DNA of 32,502 bases from Nitrospirota bacterium (lineage in GTDB: Bacteria > Nitrospirota > Thermodesulfovibrionia > Thermodesulfovibrionales > UBA1546). Both the position numbers and the translations under genes were made by a program. Below the pieces are notes generated by a model that had not been told where the DNA came from, did no database searches, and saw only the letters and a list, made by a program, of their open reading frames with translations. The stretch covers positions 1 to 32,502 of the forward strand of contig SCSY01000200.1 of assembly GCA_004298625.1 (NCBI GenBank), written 5' to 3'. Below, one piece after another: positions 2,513 through 32,502 of the stretch (position 1 is its first letter; the number at the start of each line of letters is the position of its first letter).

Positions 2513-2923
2513 TTAAAACGGTTCTGAATCCGTTATTTCTTCCGGTGGTGCAGCTTCATCAGATGGGCCGGAATCTTCCGCCCCTGTCTCGCCCTGAGCC
2601 GAAGTTCTCTTTGACAAGAATCTGACTGAATTGGCAACTACCTCGAACTTGCTCTTCTGCTGCCCTTCGGACTCCCATCTTCTTTCCTGCAGCCTTCCCT
2701 CAACAAGAACGGATTTCCCCTTGCTGAGATACTGGCCTACATTTTCAGCCTGTTTGCCGAAAACAACAATACTGATGAAAAGCGTTTCGTCTTTGAATTC
2801 GCCCTGATGCTTTACCTTTGAGTTTACAGCTATTCTGAAAGAGGCAACTGCCGTCCCCTGAGGTGTATACCTGAGTTCGGGGTCTTTCGTTAAATTTCCT
2901 ATCAATATTGCTTTGTTATACAT
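2513..2923 (-). CDS. ssb: Single-stranded DNA-binding protein
   Basis: 136 aa. OB-fold N-terminus MYNKAILIGNLTKDPELRYTPQGTAVASFRIAVN..., a G/P/E-rich linker, and an acidic C-terminal tip ...DSEPF. Confidence 0.95.
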   Translation of the reverse strand: MYNKAILIGNLTKDPELRYTPQGTAVASFRIAVNSKVKHQGEFKDETLFISIVVFGKQAENVGQYLSKGKSVLVEGRLQERRWESEGQQKSKFEVVANSVRFLSKRTSAQGETGAEDSGPSDEAAPPEEITDSEPF

Positions 2924-3301
2924 TTACGCCTCGCTTTTGGGGGCTGCCTTTTCTCCGGAAACAGCCGCGCCTGCTGCCGCGACAGGAGCTGCCGGCAACG
3001 CTGCGTCAATCTGCTTTTGACCCAGCTTCAAAACCATATATTTCATCACGGGATCAAAGACCTTATAATAATCCTCGAGTTTTCTTATCGCCGCAGACGG
3101 GGATTTAAAAAAGAGAAGAAGATAAAAACCCTTGTTCTGTTTTTGTATCTCATAGGCCAGTTTTCTTCTGCCCCATACATCAACCTTGAGAATTTCTCCG
3201 CCGGAACTTGTTATGAGGTCTTTTATCTTCCCTGAAGCAGTTTCGATGTCTTCGTCGCTGAGAGACGCATTGAAAATAATAATATTTTCGTAGATGTCCA
3301 T
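2924..3301 (-). CDS. rpsF: 30S ribosomal protein S6
   Basis: 125 aa: YENIIIFNASLSDEDIETASGKIKDLI...GGEILKVDVWGRRKLAYEI is S6-like. AAGGAGGTG RBS upstream. Its stop abuts the ssb start. Confidence 0.93.
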   Translation of the reverse strand: MDIYENIIIFNASLSDEDIETASGKIKDLITSSGGEILKVDVWGRRKLAYEIQKQNKGFYLLLFFKSPSAAIRKLEDYYKVFDPVMKYMVLKLGQKQIDAALPAAPVAAAGAAVSGEKAAPKSEA

Positions 3302-13644: not shown

Positions 13645-14103
13645 TTATAGCTTATTCATCGCCCTTCTCTTTGCTTTTTCTTTTTTAGAAAGTTTTCTTG
13701 AACTGCCTTTTTTCTCTGATTCGTATTCCTCTTCCTCCAGGAGCTCAAAATCGCCCGAATCAACCCTTCCTGATCTCTCAAGGACATTTTGAAATTCTTC
13801 TGAGGATACAGCGACAGAGCCGCATCTCCACGCATGGTCTGTTATCTCCCTGTCGGATGAGATAAGGATCCACTGTCTTTTACCGGATGAGATAATCCTC
13901 TTAATAACAGAATCGGCTTTTTCTCCAAGCCTCGAATAGATAATTCTTACCCCGCCTGCCACGGATTGATTCTCCTCACCGCTTCCGCTTTTCCATCCGT
14001 CGAATACAACAGTGATTTCATGCCCCTTTATTTTCCTGTATTCAGCAAGCTTCTCCACAAGCCTCTGCCGCTCTGCCTCAAGGTCTTTATGATGTATGCC
14101 CAT
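13645..14103 (-). CDS. YacP/Rae1-like NYN-domain ribonuclease (N-terminus probably extends to 14136)
   Basis: 152 aa from the first ATG: ...ITVVFDGWKSG...RIIYSRLGEKADSVIKRII...ILISSDREI is YacP-like. The in-frame upstream codons read IASIIIDGYNL-M, which is the conserved (L/I)xVDGYN strand of this family. See findings. Confidence 0.75.
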   Translation of the reverse strand: MGIHHKDLEAERQRLVEKLAEYRKIKGHEITVVFDGWKSGSGEENQSVAGGVRIIYSRLGEKADSVIKRIISSGKRQWILISSDREITDHAWRCGSVAVSSEEFQNVLERSGRVDSGDFELLEEEEYESEKKGSSRKLSKKEKAKRRAMNKL

Positions 14104-14182
14104 TAAATTGTAACCGTCTATTATTATAGAAGCTATCGCACACCTCCGATTCTGATTATTATAACCAAAACTTTATTATTTC

Positions 14183-14370
14183 GACCGAAGGCAGGGCTTG
14201 ATTGAGCGATATTAGAGATTTTTCGTTGACGATCTTAGCGAATAGAGTGTTCACCGCAGGCGGAACAGCCGCAACTGTCTGAGCGAAGCGAGTTTTGCGG
14301 CTGTAGCGAAATGAGCTTTAGAACGACAGAAAAATCTCTGCCGGTAGCGAAACCCGCCCTGCCTTCGGTC
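14183..14370 (+). ncRNA. Candidate structured RNA (6S-like rod or protein-sponge RNA), or alternatively a MITE-like palindromic element
   Basis: Three nested perfect stems: 14183-14197/14356-14370 (15 bp), 14214-14224/14329-14339 (11 bp) and 14265-14274/14295-14304 (10 bp). A symmetric 16x16-nt internal loop is present. AGCGA occurs six times on the plus strand only. The strand call rests on the motif asymmetry (GCGA fits a GNRA loop). Confidence 0.3.
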
Positions 14371-14409
14371 TATATCAATCCGCGCCAGCCCAATAAGTTA
14401 TAATAAATT

Positions 14410-16299
14410 ATGCTTAAAGAACGGGATTATGACGTAATTGTTATCGGCGCGGGGCATGCGGGGTGCGAGGCTGCGCTTGCTGCATCGCGCATGGGATTTT
14501 CGACCTGCCTCTTCACTATGAACCTCGACACAATCGGCCAGATGTCGTGCAACCCTGCAATCGGAGGTCTTGCAAAAGGACATATTGTGCGGGAGATAGA
14601 TGCCTTAGGCGGAGAGATGGCAAAGATAACCGATAAGGCCGGGATTCAATTCAGGATATTAAACAAATCAAAGGGCCCTGCGGTATGGTCATTGAGGGCG
14701 CAGGCGGACAGGGTTTTATACAAACTTGAGATACGAAAGGTTCTTGAGTCTCAAAATAATCTCGACATAAAACAGGCATCCGTTGAAAAGATTGTCGCAG
14801 AGGATGGAAAAACAGAAGGCGTTCTTACGTCATTGGGAATATTCTATGGCGCAGCCGCAGTAATAGTAACAACAGGGACATTTCTTAAAGGATTGATCCA
14901 TATCGGCCTTGAGAATTTTCAGGCCGGAAGGGCAGGGGAATTTCCTTCTGTCGGGCTTTCGAATTCATTAAGAGAACTGGGCTTTGAAATGGGAAGGCTT
15001 AAGACAGGCACTCCTCCGAGGCTTGACGCAAAGACAATTGATTTTTCAAAGACAGAGCCGCAGTATGGAGACGAACCTCCGCTGGCTTTTTCTTACAGCA
15101 CAGAGAAGATTACGAATCCCCAGCTTCCGTGCTACATAACATATACAAACCCGGAAACCCATAAGATAATCCTTGGAAGTCTTGACCGCTCGCCTTTGTA
15201 CAGCGGGAAGATTCAGGGAATAGGGCCGAGGTACTGCCCCTCGATAGAAGATAAGGTCGTAAGGTTCTCTGATAAATTACGGCATCAGGTCTTCCTTGAA
15301 CCTGAAGGCATCGAGACAAAGGAATATTATGCGAACGGAATATCCACGAGCCTTCCCTATGATGTGCAGGTGAAACTCGTGCGCACAATACCGGGACTTG
15401 AGAACACAGAGATAATGAGGCCGGGCTATGCCATAGAATATGACTTTGTATTCCCGACCCAGATAAAGCACAACCTTGAAACAAAGCGCATCAGCGGGCT
15501 TTTCCTCGCGGGACAGATTAACGGCACATCAGGATACGAAGAGGCAGCGGCGCAGGGCTTGATGGCAGGGATAAATGCCGGATTAAAGCTCCGGGGTAAA
15601 GAGCCATTAATCCTCGGAAGGCAGGAGGCATATATCGGCGTGCTTATTGACGACCTCATAACAAAAGGCACTTCCGAGCCTTACAGGATGTTTACATCAA
15701 GGGCGGAATACAGGCTGCTTTTGCGGCATGACAATGCTGATTTGAGATTGATGGAAAAAGGGTTCAACGCCGGTCTCATTAAGACCGGACAATTCAAAAA
15801 GGTAGAGGAGAAAAAAAGGCTCGTATCAGCAGAAATAGATAGGCTCAAAAAAACAAGGCTGAAACCATCGCAGATTAACGCTGCCCTCGCGGAAATAGGC
15901 GCAGCCGCAATAACAGAGGATATAATCCTGGAGCAGTTGCTTAAAAGGCCTGAGATAACGTATGAGTTTATCAAGCGGTTTTCTCCGTCGGAAAAATCTT
16001 TAAATAGCGATGTAGAAAAACAGGTAGAGATACAAACAAAATATGACGGTTATATAACAAGGCAGCTTGAGACAGCGGAAAAACTAAAAAAGGGCGAAGG
16101 GAAAAAAATCCCGGAAGGATTCGATTACGGATTAGTCAACGGGCTCTCAACAGAGATACTCGAAAAACTGAAAAGAGTGATGCCTGAAAATCTTGGACAG
16201 GCAGGCAGAATTCCGGGCATTACGCCGGCAGCGCTGTCGCTTTTACTGATAAACATAGAGAAGAAAAAAAGACAGGGCAAAAAAGAAAAACAAACCTGA
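14410..16299 (+). CDS. mnmG: tRNA uridine 5-carboxymethylaminomethyl modification enzyme MnmG (GidA)
   Basis: 629 aa. YDVIVIGAGHAGCEAALAASRMG is the FAD motif, and the sequence is GidA-like throughout (GPRYCPSIEDKVVRF, GQINGTSGYEEAAAQG). Confidence 0.97.
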   Translation: MLKERDYDVIVIGAGHAGCEAALAASRMGFSTCLFTMNLDTIGQMSCNPAIGGLAKGHIVREIDALGGEMAKITDKAGIQFRILNKSKGPAVWSLRAQADRVLYKLEIRKVLESQNNLDIKQASVEKIVAEDGKTEGVLTSLGIFYGAAAVIVTTGTFLKGLIHIGLENFQAGRAGEFPSVGLSNSLRELGFEMGRLKTGTPPRLDAKTIDFSKTEPQYGDEPPLAFSYSTEKITNPQLPCYITYTNPETHKIILGSLDRSPLYSGKIQGIGPRYCPSIEDKVVRFSDKLRHQVFLEPEGIETKEYYANGISTSLPYDVQVKLVRTIPGLENTEIMRPGYAIEYDFVFPTQIKHNLETKRISGLFLAGQINGTSGYEEAAAQGLMAGINAGLKLRGKEPLILGRQEAYIGVLIDDLITKGTSEPYRMFTSRAEYRLLLRHDNADLRLMEKGFNAGLIKTGQFKKVEEKKRLVSAEIDRLKKTRLKPSQINAALAEIGAAAITEDIILEQLLKRPEITYEFIKRFSPSEKSLNSDVEKQVEIQTKYDGYITRQLETAEKLKKGEGKKIPEGFDYGLVNGLSTEILEKLKRVMPENLGQAGRIPGITPAALSLLLINIEKKKRQGKKEKQT

Positions 16300-24618: not shown

Positions 24619-24936
24619 TCAGGATTGGCTTTCAAGTATCTGCATGTCAAGCAGCCTTGCTCCGTGTATAACGCGCATTATAATTACCCGTGCCCCATCT
24701 ATTCTAAAAATTGTTCTGTAATTGCCATAGATGAGGTGACGGTACTTTCCGCCTAATTCGTGTGATTCCGGGATAACAGCACAGCGCATAGGGGATGTCT
24801 CCAGTGTCTCTATCTGTCGTTCGATTTCATCAACCAATCTGATTGCCGCAGTCTTGCTGTCTGTTGAAATATAATCAAAAATATACTGTATATCGGCCTC
24901 GGCTATACGGGTAATCTCAACCTTATGCCTTAGCAC
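24619..24936 (-). CDS. Type II toxin, RelE/ParE family
   Basis: 105 aa. ParE/RelE-like: ...AEADIQYIFDYIS...A..LVDEIERQIETL...P...V.PE......YRHLIYGNYRTIFRIDGARVIIMRVIHGARL. It overlaps the upstream antitoxin gene by 14 nt. Confidence 0.85.
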   Translation of the reverse strand: MLRHKVEITRIAEADIQYIFDYISTDSKTAAIRLVDEIERQIETLETSPMRCAVIPESHELGGKYRHLIYGNYRTIFRIDGARVIIMRVIHGARLLDMQILESQS

Positions 24937-26001: not shown

Positions 26002-26077
26002 TGGTGGGCAGTCGCAGAATCGAACTGCGGACACGAGGCTTTTCAGGCCTCTGCTCTACCGACTGAGCTAACTGCCC
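26002..26077 (-). tRNA. tRNA-Phe (anticodon GAA), with CCA encoded
   Basis: Hand-folded cloverleaf: GGGCAGT-TA-GCTC-AGTCGGTA-GAGC-A-GAGGC-CTGAAAA-GCCTC-GTGTC-CGCAG-TTCGATT-CTGCG-ACTGCCC-A-CCA. Length 76 nt. Confidence 0.95.
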
Positions 26078-27753: not shown

Positions 27754-28864
27754 ATGTTGCTTCAGGCTGAACTTAAAGAAGAACTATCACTTTTAAGGGC
27801 CTTGACGGAGTCCCTTAGAGGTTATCTTTGATGTTGCAGTTCTTCGTAAAGAAATAGAGGATATTAATAAAGAGCTTTCTTCGGCGTCTGTCTGGGACTC
27901 GCCTCAAAAAATGCACGGCCTGCAAAAAAGAAAGGCGTATATTGAAGACGTGCTCTTGCCGTTTGAGGCTGCATCCGACAAACTTGCTTACCTCGAAGAG
28001 TCCTTAAAAATACTCGATGAAGACGAGGGTGAAGTATTTCTCCAGGAGATCCGGCAGGAGGTCAAAGACCTGCGCAAAGAACTCGAAGATCTGGAACTCA
28101 GACACCTCCTTTCCGAAGAGCTTGATAAAAACAATGCAATTGTCTCTATCCATCCCGGCGCAGGCGGAACAGAAAGCCAGGATTGGGCGCAGATGCTGAT
28201 GAGAATGTATTTGCGCTGGGCGGAACAGCACAAATTTAACGCCCAGATCGTTGATCTTCAGCCAGGTGAAGAGGCTGGAATCAAGGGTGTAACTATAACC
28301 ATAAACGGGTCGTATGCATACGGCTTTATAAAGGCAGAGGCCGGCGTGCACAGGCTTGTCAGAATTTCCCCTTATGATGCAAATAAAAGGAGGCATACCT
28401 CTTTTGCCGCTGTTCTTGTTTATCCGGAAATCGAAGAAGATATAAATATTGAAATAAAACCTGATGAATTAAAGATTGACACATTCAGGGCTTCAGGGGC
28501 AGGCGGTCAGCATGTAAATAAAACTTCATCCGCAGTCAGGTTGACTCATATTCCCACAGGGATTGTCACAACATGCCAGAATGAACGTTCGCAGCATAAA
28601 AATAAGGCGACGGCTCTGAAAATTCTGAAGGCGCGTCTTTTTGCTCTTTCAGTTAAGGAACAGGACGCTAAGATTAAGGGAATGGTCGGCGATAAAAAAG
28701 ATATAGCGTGGGGCAGTCAGATAAGGTCTTACGTGCTTCAGCCGTATCGTCTTGTTAAGGACCATAGAACGGGTTTGGAGATTGGGAATGTTGATTCTGT
28801 GCTTAACGGCAACATTGATGAATTTATAAAAGGTTATCTGAAAAATAGAAAAGGAAAGGTGTAA
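27754..28864 (+). CDS. prfB: Peptide chain release factor 2, requiring a programmed +1 frameshift: join(27754..27828, 27830..28864)
   Basis: Frame 0 reads MLLQAELKEELSLLRALTESLRGYL, then an in-frame TGA at 27829-27831. Reading +1 gives DVAVLRKEIEDINKELSSASVWDSPQK-MHGLQ..., which joins track ORF 27911..28864. The GGQ motif (RASGAGGQHVNKT) and an SPF-like motif (RISPYD) are present. Confidence 0.95.
27817..27831 (+). promoter_or_regulatory. RF2 autoregulatory frameshift site (internal SD-like AGAGG, spacer, CTT TGA)
   Basis: agaggt-tat-ctt-tga read directly. This is the same architecture as the classical prfB frameshift cassette. Confidence 0.9.
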
Positions 28865-29157: not shown

Positions 29158-30489
29158 ATGAGCATAGAAGAAATTTGGGAGAAGAGTCTTTCAATAATAG
29201 AAGAGAAGGTCGGAAACAGCATATTTGAACTATGGTTCAGGCCTATCAAACCGCTTCATATAAAAGAGCAACAACTGACCCTTGAGGTGCCGAACAGATT
29301 CTTTAAGGAGTGGATAGAAGACTACTATCCGATTCTCGTAAACGAGGCGCTGGAGAAGATTTTGGGCCATCCTGTGACCTTGAAATATAAAATATCGGAA
29401 AAAGAAACTGCCGATATAAAAAGGCAGGAGGCTAAACTCGAAAACAGGAAGACCAAACTTGCAAGCAGGGGCATATACCTTAATCCAAAATATACCTTTG
29501 AGAACTTTATCGGCGGACCCAGCAATCAGTTTGCCGAGGCAGCGGCAAAGGCTGTGGCAGGCAGTCCGGGCAAGGTTTACAATCCCTTGTTTATTTATGG
29601 AGGCGTTGGTCTCGGGAAAACGCATTTAATAAGCGCAATCGGCAATAATGTTATAGACAACAAACACGAGTATAATGTGCTTTATGTGTCCTCGGAGCAA
29701 TTTACAAATGAGGTCGTATCGGCAATAAGGCACGGGAAGACAGAGGAACTGAAAAAAAAATACAGGAATGTTGATCTGCTTCTCATAGACGACATTCAGT
29801 TTGTGGAAAACAAGGTCCAGACACAGGAAGAGCTGTTCTATACGATTAATTCTCTTTATGAGAAACAGCGGCAGATAGTCATTTCCAGCGACAGGCCGCC
29901 TAAGGAGATAAAGTCTGTGACAGACAGGCTGCGGTCGCGTTTCGGTATGGGACTTATCGCCGACATACAGGCGCCGGAATTCGAGACGCGCGTGGCAATC
30001 ATCCACAAAAAAGCGGCAATGGAGAGGATAAACCTGAAAGAAGATGTTATAAATTTTATTGCGTCTAAAATAAAAACAAACATTCGGGAACTTGAAGGGG
30101 GACTGATCAGGCTCGGGGCTCAGGCCGCGCTGACAGGCAGCCCGATAGATGTGAGCATGGCAAAAAATGTTTTGAAGGACTTTATCCAGGATGATGAAAA
30201 GCCGATAACAGTGGAGCAGATACAAAAAACAGTCTGTGAATATTTCGGCCTTAAAATGCAGGACTTAAAGGCCAGAAAAAGAACCAAAGAGGTGGCTCTG
30301 CCGAGGCAGATAGCAATGTATCTGAGCAAGCAGCTTACAGCAGGCTCTCTGAGCGATATAGGGAAAAACATGGGGGGCAAGGATCACGCAACAGTTATCT
30401 ATGCCTGCAAGCAGATAGAAGATAAAAAATCAAAAGACGAGAATTTTAACAGGATGGTAGAGACCCTGTCTCATAAAATAAAACCTTAA
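29158..30489 (+). CDS. dnaA: Chromosomal replication initiator protein DnaA
   Basis: 443 aa. Walker A GGVGLGKTHL. LLIDDIQF. Sensor/box VII region SSDRPPKEI...RLRSRF. C-terminal DNA-binding domain (...IALPRQIAMYLSKQLT..SL..IG..MGGKDHATVIYA). Confidence 0.97.
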   Translation: MSIEEIWEKSLSIIEEKVGNSIFELWFRPIKPLHIKEQQLTLEVPNRFFKEWIEDYYPILVNEALEKILGHPVTLKYKISEKETADIKRQEAKLENRKTKLASRGIYLNPKYTFENFIGGPSNQFAEAAAKAVAGSPGKVYNPLFIYGGVGLGKTHLISAIGNNVIDNKHEYNVLYVSSEQFTNEVVSAIRHGKTEELKKKYRNVDLLLIDDIQFVENKVQTQEELFYTINSLYEKQRQIVISSDRPPKEIKSVTDRLRSRFGMGLIADIQAPEFETRVAIIHKKAAMERINLKEDVINFIASKIKTNIRELEGGLIRLGAQAALTGSPIDVSMAKNVLKDFIQDDEKPITVEQIQKTVCEYFGLKMQDLKARKRTKEVALPRQIAMYLSKQLTAGSLSDIGKNMGGKDHATVIYACKQIEDKKSKDENFNRMVETLSHKIKP

Positions 30490-30502: not shown

Positions 30503-31606
30503 ATGAAGCTGAGCGTATCTAAGGCGGAATTGCAGGAAAAACTTTCGAATATTCAGAACATTGTCGAAAAAAGGAATACGATGCCGGTATTGAGCCACTT
30601 TCTTTTAGACGCAGGCAAAAAGAAATCGTATATAATTGCCACGGACCTTGAAACAGCAATCAAAGAACCTCTTGATATAAAAGTTGAAAAAGAAGGTAAA
30701 CTCTGCATCCCTGCAAGAAAGATGTTTGAGATAGTAAGAGAGGTGGACGGAGATATAACAATGGAGTCCGAGGACGGGCAGTGGCTCAAGGTTCGCGCCG
30801 GGATGAGCAAGTTCAAGCTTGCCTGCCTTTCAGCAAGCGAATTCCCTGCATGGCCGGGCATGGAAAATGTAGAAGAGATGCAGATGGACACGAAAAATCT
30901 CGTGGAGATGATAGAGAAAAGCCTTTATGCAGCAGGAGAGAGCGATACAAGGTATACCCTGAACGGCCTCCTGTTTCATGCAATGCCGGGCAGTGAAGAA
31001 ATAAATGTTGTGGGCACGGACGGTCACAGACTGGCCTGTATAAGCAGGAAGATAGACACTCCGTTAAAGGAAGAAAAAAAGGTTATCGTGCCGAGGAAGG
31101 CAGCGGCAGAGGTCAGGAAATTTCTTGACGGGGATATTGATAAGATAATAGTAGTTATCGGCAAAAGCCACGTGATGTTCAAGATAGAGGACGTGCAGTT
31201 TCTGACAAGGCTGATAGAGGGCACATATCCGAATTATGAACAGGTGATTCCCTCAGGCAATGAAAAGAAGATTGCAATCAACAAGGAAGAGTTTATAAAA
31301 GCGCTTCGGAGGGTATCTGTAATGAGCAGGGAAAAAAGCAATGCCATAAAAGCAGATTTTAGCGACGGGTCTCTATCAGTTTCAGCTTCAAACCCGGACC
31401 TTGGAGAGGCAAAAGATGAGGTCAAAGTAGAATATAAAGGCGAGCCGCTTTCCATGGGTTTTAATGCAAAGTATCTGCTGGATGCCCTGAATGCCATGTC
31501 CGGAGACAATATTGTCTTTGAACTTCAGGACCCGTTAAGCCCTACGCTTTTAAAAGAACAAGGCAGTGATAGTTATAAATGCGTGATAATGCCGATGAGA
31601 GTATAA
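30503..31606 (+). CDS. dnaN: DNA polymerase III beta sliding clamp
   Basis: 367 aa. MKLSVSKAELQEKLSNIQNIVEKRNTMPVLSHFLL..., ...TDGHRLA..., ...YPNYEQVIP... and ...IMPMRV are typical DnaN. GGAGGGG RBS. Confidence 0.97.
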   Translation: MKLSVSKAELQEKLSNIQNIVEKRNTMPVLSHFLLDAGKKKSYIIATDLETAIKEPLDIKVEKEGKLCIPARKMFEIVREVDGDITMESEDGQWLKVRAGMSKFKLACLSASEFPAWPGMENVEEMQMDTKNLVEMIEKSLYAAGESDTRYTLNGLLFHAMPGSEEINVVGTDGHRLACISRKIDTPLKEEKKVIVPRKAAAEVRKFLDGDIDKIIVVIGKSHVMFKIEDVQFLTRLIEGTYPNYEQVIPSGNEKKIAINKEEFIKALRRVSVMSREKSNAIKADFSDGSLSVSASNPDLGEAKDEVKVEYKGEPLSMGFNAKYLLDALNAMSGDNIVFELQDPLSPTLLKEQGSDSYKCVIMPMRV

Positions 31607-31696: not shown

Positions 31697-32502
31697 ATGG
31701 AAGAGAAAGAGCAGATTAACCAGGTCGGAAACGACGAGCAACAAGAAAAAGAGTCCTACGGAGCAGAGGACATAAAGATACTTAAGGGCCTTAGCGCTGT
31801 AAGAAAAAGGCCTGCAATGTATATAGGCTCAACAGGCCATGAAGGTCTCCACCACCTTGTATATGAGGTTGTGGATAACAGCGTTGATGAATCCCTTGCC
31901 GGTTTTTGCAAAAATATCGAGGTGATCCTCCATCACGACGGAAGCTGCACGGTAATAGATGATGGAAGAGGCATCCCGACAGACCAGCATCCCGGCGACC
32001 CCGAGGGCAGGACAGCGGCAGAGATAGCCCTCACAGAGCTTCATGCAGGCGGTAAGTTTGAATCAAAGGCATACAAGATATCAGGCGGTCTCCACGGCGT
32101 TGGGGTATCGGTTGTCAATGCGTTATCTGAATGGCTCGATGTTGAGATAAAACAAAACGGGAAGGTTTTTCAGCAGCATTTTGACAGGGGTAAACCCTCA
32201 GCCCCGCTCGCTACTGTCGGAAAGACAAAATCCAGGGGCACCAAGATCACATTTAAGCCTGACGCCGAGATATTCGAGACAACGGAATTCAGCTATGATG
32301 TTCTTTCCCAGAGGCTGAGGGAAATGGCGTTTCTTAACAGCGGTCTAAAAATTTCCATACATGATGAAAACACGGATAAAACACAGGAGTTTCATTACAA
32401 AGGCGGCATAGTTTCTTTTGTCGAGCACCTGAATAAAAATAAGGCGCCGTTGCATCCAAAGCCTGTGTATATATCAGGAGAAAAAGACGGAATTACGGCT
32501 GA
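31697..32502 (+). CDS. gyrB: DNA gyrase subunit B (N-terminal part; runs off the window)
   Basis: Not in the track because it is edge-truncated. My translation from ATG 31697 reads [69 protein letters not shown]...LHAGGKF...[15 protein letters not shown]..., which is the canonical GHKL ATPase domain. RBS GAGAGAGGAAG. Confidence 0.97.

Follow-up and report, generated by a model that had tools for sequence, protein, structure and literature searches.

The spacer between a YacP-like gene and mnmG in a 32,502-nt contig of a Nitrospirota bacterium (GenBank assembly GCA_004298625.1, contig SCSY01000200.1; this whole stretch is called the window below) contains a nested inverted repeat. On balance, we read positions 14178–14383 as a dispersed (mobile), non-autonomous hairpin element, present here as a solo copy and belonging to a very widespread family. 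The family is a non-autonomous mobile, or at least replicative, element, and it is not a textbook miniature inverted-repeat transposable element (MITE) with terminal inverted repeats and target-site duplications. Its copies are rods of 188–340 nt in which the helices vary freely, while conservation of the tip and of several internal loops is confined to one strand, hereafter the motif strand (plus in the window). Members occur in at least five phyla (Nitrospirota, Bacillota, Pseudomonadota, Fusobacteriota and Thermodesulfobacteriota) and are common in human-gut assemblies.

Anatomy and spread of the hairpin family

An inverted-repeat search of the window recovers the three perfect nested stems, P1 to P3, together with the loops that a first-pass annotation, made from the sequence alone, had described (Table 1). 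The outer pairing reaches 14178/14375 imperfectly (20 nt, 90%), and the stem coordinates leave internal loops of 16 x 16 nt and 40 x 24 nt and an apical loop of 20 nt. Equally sound was the annotation's count of AGCGA pentamers: six on the plus strand (14205, 14237, 14282, 14287, 14305 and 14346), all within unpaired segments, and none on the minus strand. The pentamer occurs 52 times over both strands of the entire window, giving an expectation of ~0.15 per strand in 188 nt and a Poisson probability of ~1e-8 for six or more. The element folds to −80.5 kcal/mol on the plus strand (z −5.4) and to −77.2 kcal/mol on the minus strand (z −5.8), values that no shuffle equals. A covariance model finds it at 14253–14317 (58 bits, E = 8e-13), as a solo copy and the sole one in the 32.5 kb.

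Table 1. Coordinates of the window element and of the adjoining promoter-like site, with counterparts in other family members (loci carry L numbers)
Feature	Positions	Strand	Content	Family counterpart
Whole element	14178..14383	+	Rod 14178-14375 (imperfect outer pairing) plus short 3' tail GTCTATATCAATCC	Tail resembles GTCTATTCATCC of Blautia copy L011
P1 5' arm	14183..14197	+	Pairs with 14356-14370 (15 bp, perfect); includes CCGAAGG at 14185-14191	CCGAAGGCAGGGC also present in Blautia copy L011
16 x 16 loop, 5' side	14198..14213	+	TTGATTGAGCGATATT; carries AGCGA no. 1	Aligns with GCGCGCATTGG, GTGCGAATTGA, TGAGCGACTTGG of L057, L034, L101, L024 and with GTGCATTTGCAGG of the gut subfamily
P2 5' arm	14214..14224	+	AGAGATTTTTC; pairs with 14329-14339 (11 bp, perfect)	Arms GAGATTTTTCG / CGAAAAAT conserved in L101, L057, L034
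Asymmetric loop, 5' side	14225..14264	+	CTTAGC at 14234-14239; AGCGA no. 2	
P3 5' arm	14265..14274	+	Pairs with 14295-14304 (10 bp, perfect; closing stem)	Stem covaries across the family
Signature tip	14275..14295	+	CTGTCTGA 14275-14282, mini-hairpin GCGAAGC 14283-14289, GAGTTT 14290-14295; AGCGA nos. 3 and 4	
P3 3' arm	14295..14304	+	Pairs with 14265-14274	
Asymmetric loop, 3' side	14305..14328	+	AGCGAAATGAG (AGCGA no. 5); GCTTTAG 14315-14321	Homologous to CAGCGAAGCGAGG (L034, L057, L129), CAGTGAAGCGAGATTTAG (L101), ATGCCTTTAGC (gut subfamily)
P2 3' arm	14329..14339	+	Pairs with 14214-14224	
16 x 16 loop, 3' side	14340..14355	+	GCCGGTAGCGAAACCC; AGCGA no. 6; CGAAACC 14348-14354	CCGAAACC(GCAC) conserved at this position in the gut subfamily
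P1 3' arm	14356..14370	+	Pairs with 14183-14197	
Promoter-like site of yacP-like gene	14155..14184	-	Consensus match only; compared with L001, L004, L005	

When a genome collection with a single genome for each species was scanned for both outer arms, spaced as in the window, it gave five matches, of which four are chance matches in coding or unrelated sequence. The only homologous one, L011, lies between convergent pfk and ykuD genes in a Blautia metagenome-assembled genome. The Blautia and window copies have in common the P1 5' arm, a GxTTTTTCG...CTTAGC segment and the apical ACTGTCTGAGC...GCGAGTTTGCGG; a MAFFT alignment of the two is poor, and their homology was established by anchored inspection and by later alignment with closer relatives, among which the environmental members L101, L057, L034 and L024 align most closely with the window copy. 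Searches with the apical motif CTGTCTGAGC-N(2-25)-GCGAGTTT gave exact tips in L011 and L014–L019, in three viral contigs and in at least 120 metagenome contigs, and in nearly every match a complementary stem, unrelated in sequence, closes the motif. On plasmids and chromids, BLAST with the window element matched 138 records at 339 places (up to seven per record), nearly all of them Ralstonia megaplasmids matched at the tip, with seven places falling on one Ilyobacter replicon; a few of the 138 records are unrelated low-score matches, and single Bacteroidota tip matches among them were not inspected. A Trichlorobacter plasmid copy was matched by the Blautia query. No match was found in E. coli genomes or in plasmids queried with the gut subfamily, and phage records gave marginal matches only.

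No Rfam 15 family overlaps the element at 16 family loci or at the Blautia locus, and literature searches with the sequence strings of the tip, the internal loops and a second hairpin of the Ralstonia copies returned no paper on a bacterial element. The family was found neither in Rfam nor in the searchable literature, which is not proof that it is undescribed. The string CUGUCUGAGC does occur in papers on eukaryotic rRNA fragments; we take it to be the conserved 3' end of 5.8S rRNA, of which yeast presumably has the same C/U variant, and treat the likeness as coincidence.

In a set of 52 non-redundant members, both partners vary at 10 of the 11 pairs of the closing stem, with a covariation score of 0.568 against 0.185 for shuffles and 0.17–0.27 for slid-partner controls. 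The tip consensus reads A-CUGU(C/U)UGA, then a G-C/C-G clamp with a 3–4-nt loop or a longer hairpin, then GAGUUU; copies that the model found without the exact motif carry CUGUUUGA, the C/U variant, and a compensatory GAAC..GTGAG. Readings of the tip as a K-turn or a hammerhead were rejected on inspection, required pairings or core nucleotides being missing. In the human-gut subfamily (~225 nt) the consensus runs CA/GC(perfect stem)GTGC-ATTTGCAGG-..CTTAGATATTCTTAG..AAATCTGCGTTATGAG..(tip) and continues ..CTCATGCCTTTAGCAGATTT..CTTAGAATATCTTAG..CCGAAACCGCAC..(stem)GC/GTCCC.

Homologous loops of window and family pair TGAGCGATATTAGAG with GCGCGCATTGGAG, GTAGCGAAATGAGCTTTAG with CAGCGAAGCGAGG and CAGTGAAGCGAGATTTAG, and TAGCGAAACCC with CCGAAACC. 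At the loop positions homologous to those with AGCGA, the family consensus reads GCAUUUG, CUUAG and CCGAAACC, and the most strand-asymmetric 5-mer family-wide is CTTAG (123 against 7; AGCGA 43 against 13, in the arms). The pattern of AGCGA copies is genuine and in part a trait of the family, of which AGCGA is not the defining word. An earlier proposal that the AGCGA loops titrate a protein in the manner of CsrB/RsmZ finds no backing here, the family consensus differing at homologous loops; the sponge motif of CsrB/RsmZ is GGA in hairpin loops, whereas the AGCGA of the window is only moderately enriched family-wide and is replaced at those positions.

Near-identical copies at unrelated loci, which the first-pass annotation had named as telling against its RNA hypotheses, are found within the family. 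The cores of L051 and L107, like those of L097, L137, L046 and L070, are 96–99% identical over ~210 nt (205–213 nt) amid unrelated flanks; L029 and L092 also have unrelated flanks, around cores that are 94.5% identical. Flanks are unconserved beyond ~15 nt. The ends of the gut subfamily are fixed and asymmetric (CA/GC...GC/GTCC), with CA, which may be target or element, invariant 5' of the rod. Around 27 gut-subfamily copies the longest common substring is 4.96 for a copy's own flanks and 4.50 for cross-paired flanks, giving no target-site duplication, and none is evident around the window copy. Head-to-head pairs of copies, 210–390 bp apart, occur in ~15 of 100 loci. No protein recurs among the genes up to 2.5 kb away from 135 copies; clustering of the neighbours returned only housekeeping genes, from loci that had been sampled repeatedly.

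These data bear on whether the copies are classical MITEs, i.e. internally deleted insertion sequences whose mobility depends on a DDE transposase bound, in double-stranded DNA, to their terminal inverted repeats. Small, non-coding, near-identical copies dispersed between genes would suit such elements, as would the inverted repeats themselves (15 bp perfect and 20 nt at 90% in the window, perfect arms in the gut subfamily) and the terminal arm common to the Nitrospirota and Blautia copies. We nevertheless regard this origin as improbable: target sites are not duplicated, no copy has a related transposase nearby (within 2.5 kb), the CA...GTCC ends lack symmetry, mismatches and loops are strand-specific, and conservation peaks at the centre and is lowest in the arms, the reverse of elements whose terminal repeats are bound by a transposase. 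The interpretation given in the first-pass annotation is partly supported, and among its three hypotheses a palindromic MITE comes closest: multiple dispersed, near-identical copies amid unrelated flanks are borne out, target-site duplications are not, and the ends and tip are asymmetric and strand-specific.

Some copies carry additional sequence or rearranged ends. A second hairpin module, (G)GTTACTTTTC-loop-GAAAAGTAAC(C) on the motif strand, often lies 3' of the rod (L017 2160–2650, and also L018, L055, L093, L094, L126, L128 and L135); the window copy is without it. In Ralstonia the module is followed by GGCCCCGGCAGGGGACGAAAC, and two rod-plus-module units form a super-palindrome of ~480 bp. 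L056 (~1075–1115) and L074 carry the 3'-terminal 15 nt of their elements (TTTCTATGCGTCCC[T]) two to three times in tandem, as if this end had undergone repeated copying. The ~125-nt flank 3' of the L051 element (~1000–1130) is the reverse complement of the 5' flank of the 97%-identical L107 element (~1110–1240), which could reflect a rearrangement mediated by inverted copies, an in-place inversion or a fold-back assembly artefact at a long palindrome.

Strand asymmetry, mini-hairpin tip and orientation

Of 123 copies, 103 fold better as the motif strand than as its complement (mean −6.5 kcal/mol). G.U/G.T pairs number 578 on the motif strand and 355 on the opposite one, which points to selection for folding on one strand. 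Terminal triloops are GNA closed by C-G (clamp extended) in 73 of 80 cases, and terminal tetraloops are GNNA in 21 of 28, with only two GNRA. The GCGAAGC of the window tip has close counterparts throughout the family, whose tips are nearly always GCGNAGC or GCGNNAGC. Both are extraordinarily stable mini-hairpin motifs in DNA and much weaker as RNA, the DNA hairpins melting at ~76–89 °C and r(GCGAAAGC) at 39 °C (PMC13037366). Mini-hairpins are found at the single-stranded DNA (ssDNA) priming or promoter sites of G4, St-1/alpha3, RSF1010 ssiA and N4, and CCGAAGG is listed as a mini-hairpin sequence of RSF1010 ssiA (PMC13037366). The idea that GCGA forms a GNRA tetraloop in the window element gives way to a GNA triloop mini-hairpin, GCGAAGC, of a kind typical of DNA. 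Of the features that we computed, the tip discriminates best between DNA and RNA and, since it is a mini-hairpin DNA motif of the GCGNAGC type, we infer that the active form is the motif strand as ssDNA.

We likewise infer mobilisation in trans, which would proceed as follows. Once exposed as a single strand, the motif strand would fold into the rod, and its ultra-stable mini-hairpin cap and asymmetric loops could be read by an enzyme acting in trans. Such an enzyme might copy or move the element, following the logic of repetitive extragenic palindromes (REPs), REPINs and their RAYT transposases or of the 'peel and paste' of IS200/IS605; alternatively, it might prime DNA synthesis on the element, following the logic of single-strand origins. 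In this genome, a copy would have been inserted between the core promoters from which the yacP-like gene and mnmG are divergently transcribed. A bolder version, which strikes us as possible though not probable, would make the family a new cross-phylum class of interspersed elements: a self-folding ssDNA rod, capped by the GCGNAGC mini-hairpin, would present its invariant asymmetric tip (ACTGTYTGA...GAGTTT) to a conserved enzyme that acts on ssDNA, and would replicate or transpose by a single-strand route coupled to replication, with an orientation rule opposite to that of IS200/IS605. The tip-reading enzyme of such a class could be a host primase, a polymerase, a nuclease or a broadly transferred HUH protein.

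The same asymmetry could be viewed from the RNA side, as a multi-copy family of structured RNAs transcribed from the motif strand, with tip and internal loops that bind a conserved protein or are processed (e.g. by RNase III) and with copies spread by duplication and horizontal transfer. Much of the fold would suit this: the strong covariation around invariant loops, the several conserved asymmetric internal loops, the better folding and excess of G.U pairs of the motif strand and, in the tip helix, a compensatory replacement of G-C by A-U. Sense orientation is, moreover, depleted in co-directional gene pairs, as if a sense RNA were active. We consider an RNA family unlikely, however, as it has no Rfam match and no conserved promoter upstream of the 5' end, where the flanks soon lose all conservation, and as the motif strand is usually antisense to the surrounding transcription. 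Perfect helices of 25–30 bp are atypical of stable bacterial small RNAs, and the window copy has no terminator and sits between the −35 regions of two outward-facing promoters. The tips, finally, are GNA/GNNA and not GNRA or UNCG, and are weak in RNA (PMC13037366).

Copies are oriented with a clear bias. The motif strand is the C-rich strand of the flanks in 52 of 70 independent locus clusters (18 opposite, p = 6e-5), and in co-directional gene pairs it is antisense in 22 cases (-,-) and sense in seven (+,+). In the window, dnaA (29158–30489) and dnaN (30503–31606) lie to the right of the element near the cumulative GC-skew minimum (26–28 kb), with one perfect DnaA box at 31870–31878, which probably puts the origin of the chromosome within the window's right end or a little past it. 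With dnaA/dnaN and the skew minimum on this side, the plus strand at 14.2 kb would be the leading-strand template, and relative to the inferred origin the window copy agrees with the family bias. The bias may come from an insertion route specific to one strand, from selection against having the better-folding strand as lagging-strand template or as non-template strand, or from a terminator-like polar effect when the element lies in sense; GUCCC and a U-run are found at the end of many gut copies.

Several points weigh against a mobile hairpin element. The genome that holds the window copy is seen over 32.5 kb only, with one copy there, no copy yielded an empty site with exact limits, and a mobilising enzyme was found neither among the genes of the window nor in the 2.5 kb around the 135 copies. 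The exact-motif searches are ascertained for the motif and overstate the invariance of the tip, of which model-found variants exist. By analogy with REP and IS200/IS605, whose hairpins are clade-specific, a tip shared across phyla appears unusual, and its conservation would fit a universal host factor or an RNA function better; the G.U excess and the covariation would fit RNA equally. The orientation bias could stem from selection against transcriptional polarity, given the GUCCC and U-run of gut copies, or from instability of the palindrome on the lagging-strand template, and not from the mechanism of insertion; work of Ton-Hoang et al. from 2010 reportedly places the active strand of IS200/IS605 on the lagging-strand template, opposite to the bias seen here. 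Long palindromes are also prone to assembly artefacts, which may lie behind the odd flanks of L051 and L107.

The yacP–mnmG spacer and its surroundings

Judging by the names of the closest YacP homologues, the window is ordinary chromosome of a Thermodesulfovibrionales-like member of the Nitrospirota. To the left of the element lie the YacP-like NYN gene and then PAP2, TauE and Usp genes, and to the right mnmG, followed by fdhD and a sigma-54 two-component pair. The genes of the window include no transposase, integrase or HUH gene. The YacP-like gene (minus strand, start region 14104–14147) has an apparent non-canonical start, ATA in the window and ATT in the relatives L001 (3001), L004 and L005 (3001), placed 6 nt after GGAGG and upstream of the first ATG. 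The IIIDGYN motif, the typical N-terminus of YacP proteins, is encoded before that ATG, and database homologues have 163 aa. The gene almost certainly starts at 14136 (ATA after GGAGG) and not at the ATG at 14103, so that the spacer is ~273 bp long and not 306 bp as annotated at first. The non-canonical start may be subject to IF3-sensitive initiation, as in infC.

The predicted −35 hexamer of the yacP-like gene, TCGAAA (14184–14179), is on the left edge of the element, and the −10 is in sequence kept in the relatives. The element fills the space between this conserved −10 and a TATAAT 5 nt before the mnmG ATG. A perfect TATAAT 5–7 nt before the mnmG ATG is seen in the window (14399–14412), in L005 (~2845–2860) and in L004 (~2130–2145), and its placement suggests that the mnmG mRNA is leaderless or near-leaderless. 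No terminator or internal promoter was seen in the window element.

The spacer was compared with its counterparts in eight relatives, L001–L008, with YacP identities of 72–82%. Gene order yacP–mnmG is kept in L004, L005, L006 and apparently L007, and the content of the spacer differs: both the comparison of spacers and the tip covariance model failed to find the element in the orthologous spacers of L001–L008. In L005 the spacer (155 bp, 2846–3000) holds a different palindrome, GTCATTCCGC...GCAGGAATGAC; in L004 (2196–2788) it holds a PemK toxin/ribbon-helix-helix antitoxin module, a similar one flanking yacP in L001 (2251–2882); and in L007 and L008 it consists of unrelated sequence. In this lineage the spacer next to yacP is a hotspot for insertions.

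A regulator or RNA specific to this locus, acting on mnmG or yacP as a 6S-like RNA, a protein sponge or an array of AGCGA operators, is highly improbable. The position between two divergent promoters and the six same-strand, unpaired AGCGA copies invite such a reading, yet it is already contradicted by the absence of the element from the same spacer in all relatives examined, by homologues that adjoin unrelated genes in other phyla and by the lack of a 6S match. The 6S-type RNA proposed in the first-pass annotation has no counterpart in Rfam 15, neither over the window at the gathering threshold nor, with the 6S model RF00013 included, on either strand of 14000–14500 at the gathering threshold or at E ≤ 10. 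By that annotation's own reckoning, the lack of the element upstream of mnmG in relatives refutes a conserved mnmG-leader or 6S-like RNA. Note that mnmG (gidA) flanks oriC in E. coli; an oriC in the spacer was considered and rejected, as the spacer has no DnaA-box cluster, only a one-mismatch box inside yacP being present, and as relatives do not have the element.

The most economical reading of the window copy is a neutral or mildly promoter-modifying insertion, which probably has no dedicated role for the yacP-like gene or mnmG beyond supplying −35 regions. For the window alone the consequence is modest: a hairpin upstream of mnmG would be an insertion and not a regulator. The family carries more weight. 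Should it be truly undescribed, it would be among the most widely distributed non-coding repeat families in bacteria, and it links an extraordinarily stable DNA mini-hairpin, so far a biophysical curiosity, to a natural genome-wide element. The conserved 21-nt tip offers a concrete handle towards the enzyme that reads it, the family as a whole presents a testable case of strand- and orientation-biased ssDNA biology, and annotators could avoid mis-calling such spacers as small RNAs, terminators or small open reading frames (ORFs).

Two features elsewhere in the window deserve mention. A release-factor ORF (27911–28864) matches the PCRF profile only from position 27, as would fit the known programmed +1 frameshift of prfB with a short upstream ORF. 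A ParE-family toxin gene (24619–24936), presumably one half of a toxin–antitoxin pair, adjoins a tRNA gene (26005–26077, minus strand).

Comparison with known systems

Non-coding, intergenic, multi-copy hairpins with no target-site duplication recall the REP/REPIN–RAYT system. Inverted doublets, frequent in that system, may have a counterpart in the head-to-head pairs at ~15 of 100 family loci, although the window copy is solo. REPs and REPINs are read as ssDNA on one strand only, and the RAYT that mobilises them (TnpA-REP, an HUH Y1 transposase) is encoded elsewhere in the genome (PMC8266576, PMC3116915). The differences are considerable, as REPs are clade-specific palindromes of 20–50 nt directly preceded by GTAG (PMC8266576), whereas the present family has a rod of 188–340 nt with conserved internal loops and a tip maintained across at least five phyla. 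GTAG was not found 5' of the window palindrome, occurring only inside its loops (14303 and 14344), and the 32.5 kb include no RAYT gene.

With IS200/IS605 and their miniature derivatives, the palindrome-associated transposable elements (PATEs), the family has in common asymmetric ends, ssDNA hairpins specific to one strand and an orientation tied to the direction of replication or transcription; the invariant CA 5' of the gut-subfamily rods may correspond to their short conserved 5' flank. The family similarly has neither a transposase bound to terminal inverted repeats nor a target duplication. IS200/IS605 elements differ in having two separate small sub-terminal hairpins, where the arms of the present family pair end to end into one rod, and no TnpA/TnpB gene lies near family copies. 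The orientation bias of IS608 and ISDra2 is said to be opposite to that of the family.

Origins and initiation sites of the complementary strand, i.e. ssoA/palA and ssi (G4 ori-c, RSF1010 ssiA), offer a third likeness, and one could suppose that the copies themselves are single-strand initiation signals, with primase or RNA polymerase brought to the folded motif strand to begin the complementary strand, in the service either of mobile DNA with an ssDNA stage or of chromosomal re-priming. An orientation-dependent, strand-specific ssDNA rod of ~160–200 nt with a conserved tip is the anatomy of ssoA (PMC5703833). The mini-hairpin cap (GCGNAGC, GCGNNAGC or CCGAAGG) is as at the priming sites of G4, St-1/alpha3 and RSF1010 ssiA. 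TAGCGA, present three times in the internal loops of the window copy, conforms to the CS-6 consensus TAGCG(T/A), which in ssoA lies in the terminal loop, with GAGCGA/AAGCGA at the tip of the window copy, a feature not general in the family; palA of pT181 reads TGTGTTAGC-N10-GCGAGTT at CS-6, and the sequences to be compared are TTAGCGAGTT in pT181 and AAGCGAGTT in the window. Two CTG trinucleotides adjoin the cap, and CTG is the start site of E. coli primase.

We nonetheless think it rather unlikely that the family is a set of initiation signals. The resemblance to RS_B and CS-6, noticed by eye, failed the covariance-model, profile and enrichment tests: covariance model R1 had no match at palA of pT181, and neither it nor the nhmmer profile of the family matched pT181, pE194 (first 3 kb) or pUB110 (first 4 kb). 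RS_B of ssoA is TTATGCCGAGAAAATTT (PMC4598088); with up to four edits it was found in 7 of 121 copies on the motif strand and in 8 of 121 on the opposite strand (shuffles 3.2), i.e. without enrichment. In pT181 (L140, 3772–3915), CS-6 agrees with the tip CTGTCTGAGC-N-GCGAGTTT at 14 of 18 positions, which by itself is not significant, about 0.8 such matches being expected per plasmid. A G4-type site was likewise discarded, since G4 reads GGACGGCGAAAGCCGCCGTCC-CTACTG, with CTG 3' of the hairpin, whereas CTGTCTGA precedes GCGAAGC in the window and CTG is 5' in this family, the order being reversed. Origins come one per replicon, whereas family copies are multi-copy and dispersed in ordinary chromosomal spacers, not on rolling-circle plasmids, integrative and conjugative elements or ssDNA phages; and the strand that folds tends to be the leading-strand template, which does not require Okazaki priming.

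6S RNA (RF00013) is similar in being a rod of ~190 nt with internal loops, and differs in that the family has no covariance-model match, is mobile, multi-copy and not conserved at any one locus, and ends in a DNA-type mini-hairpin. Correia/NEMIS, ERIC, RUP and SPRITE elements, bacterial MITEs whose transcripts form long hairpins, are likewise small palindromic repeats interspersed in spacers, able to donate pieces of promoters or terminators, but are lineage-restricted and symmetric, with transposase-type terminal inverted repeats and target duplications. Against bacterial MITEs in general, the family stands out as cross-phylum, centre-conserved and strand-asymmetric. It resembles REP/REPIN and IS200/IS605 in logic and single-strand origins such as ssoA in anatomy, and appears to be a member of none of these ssDNA systems as far as they were compared.

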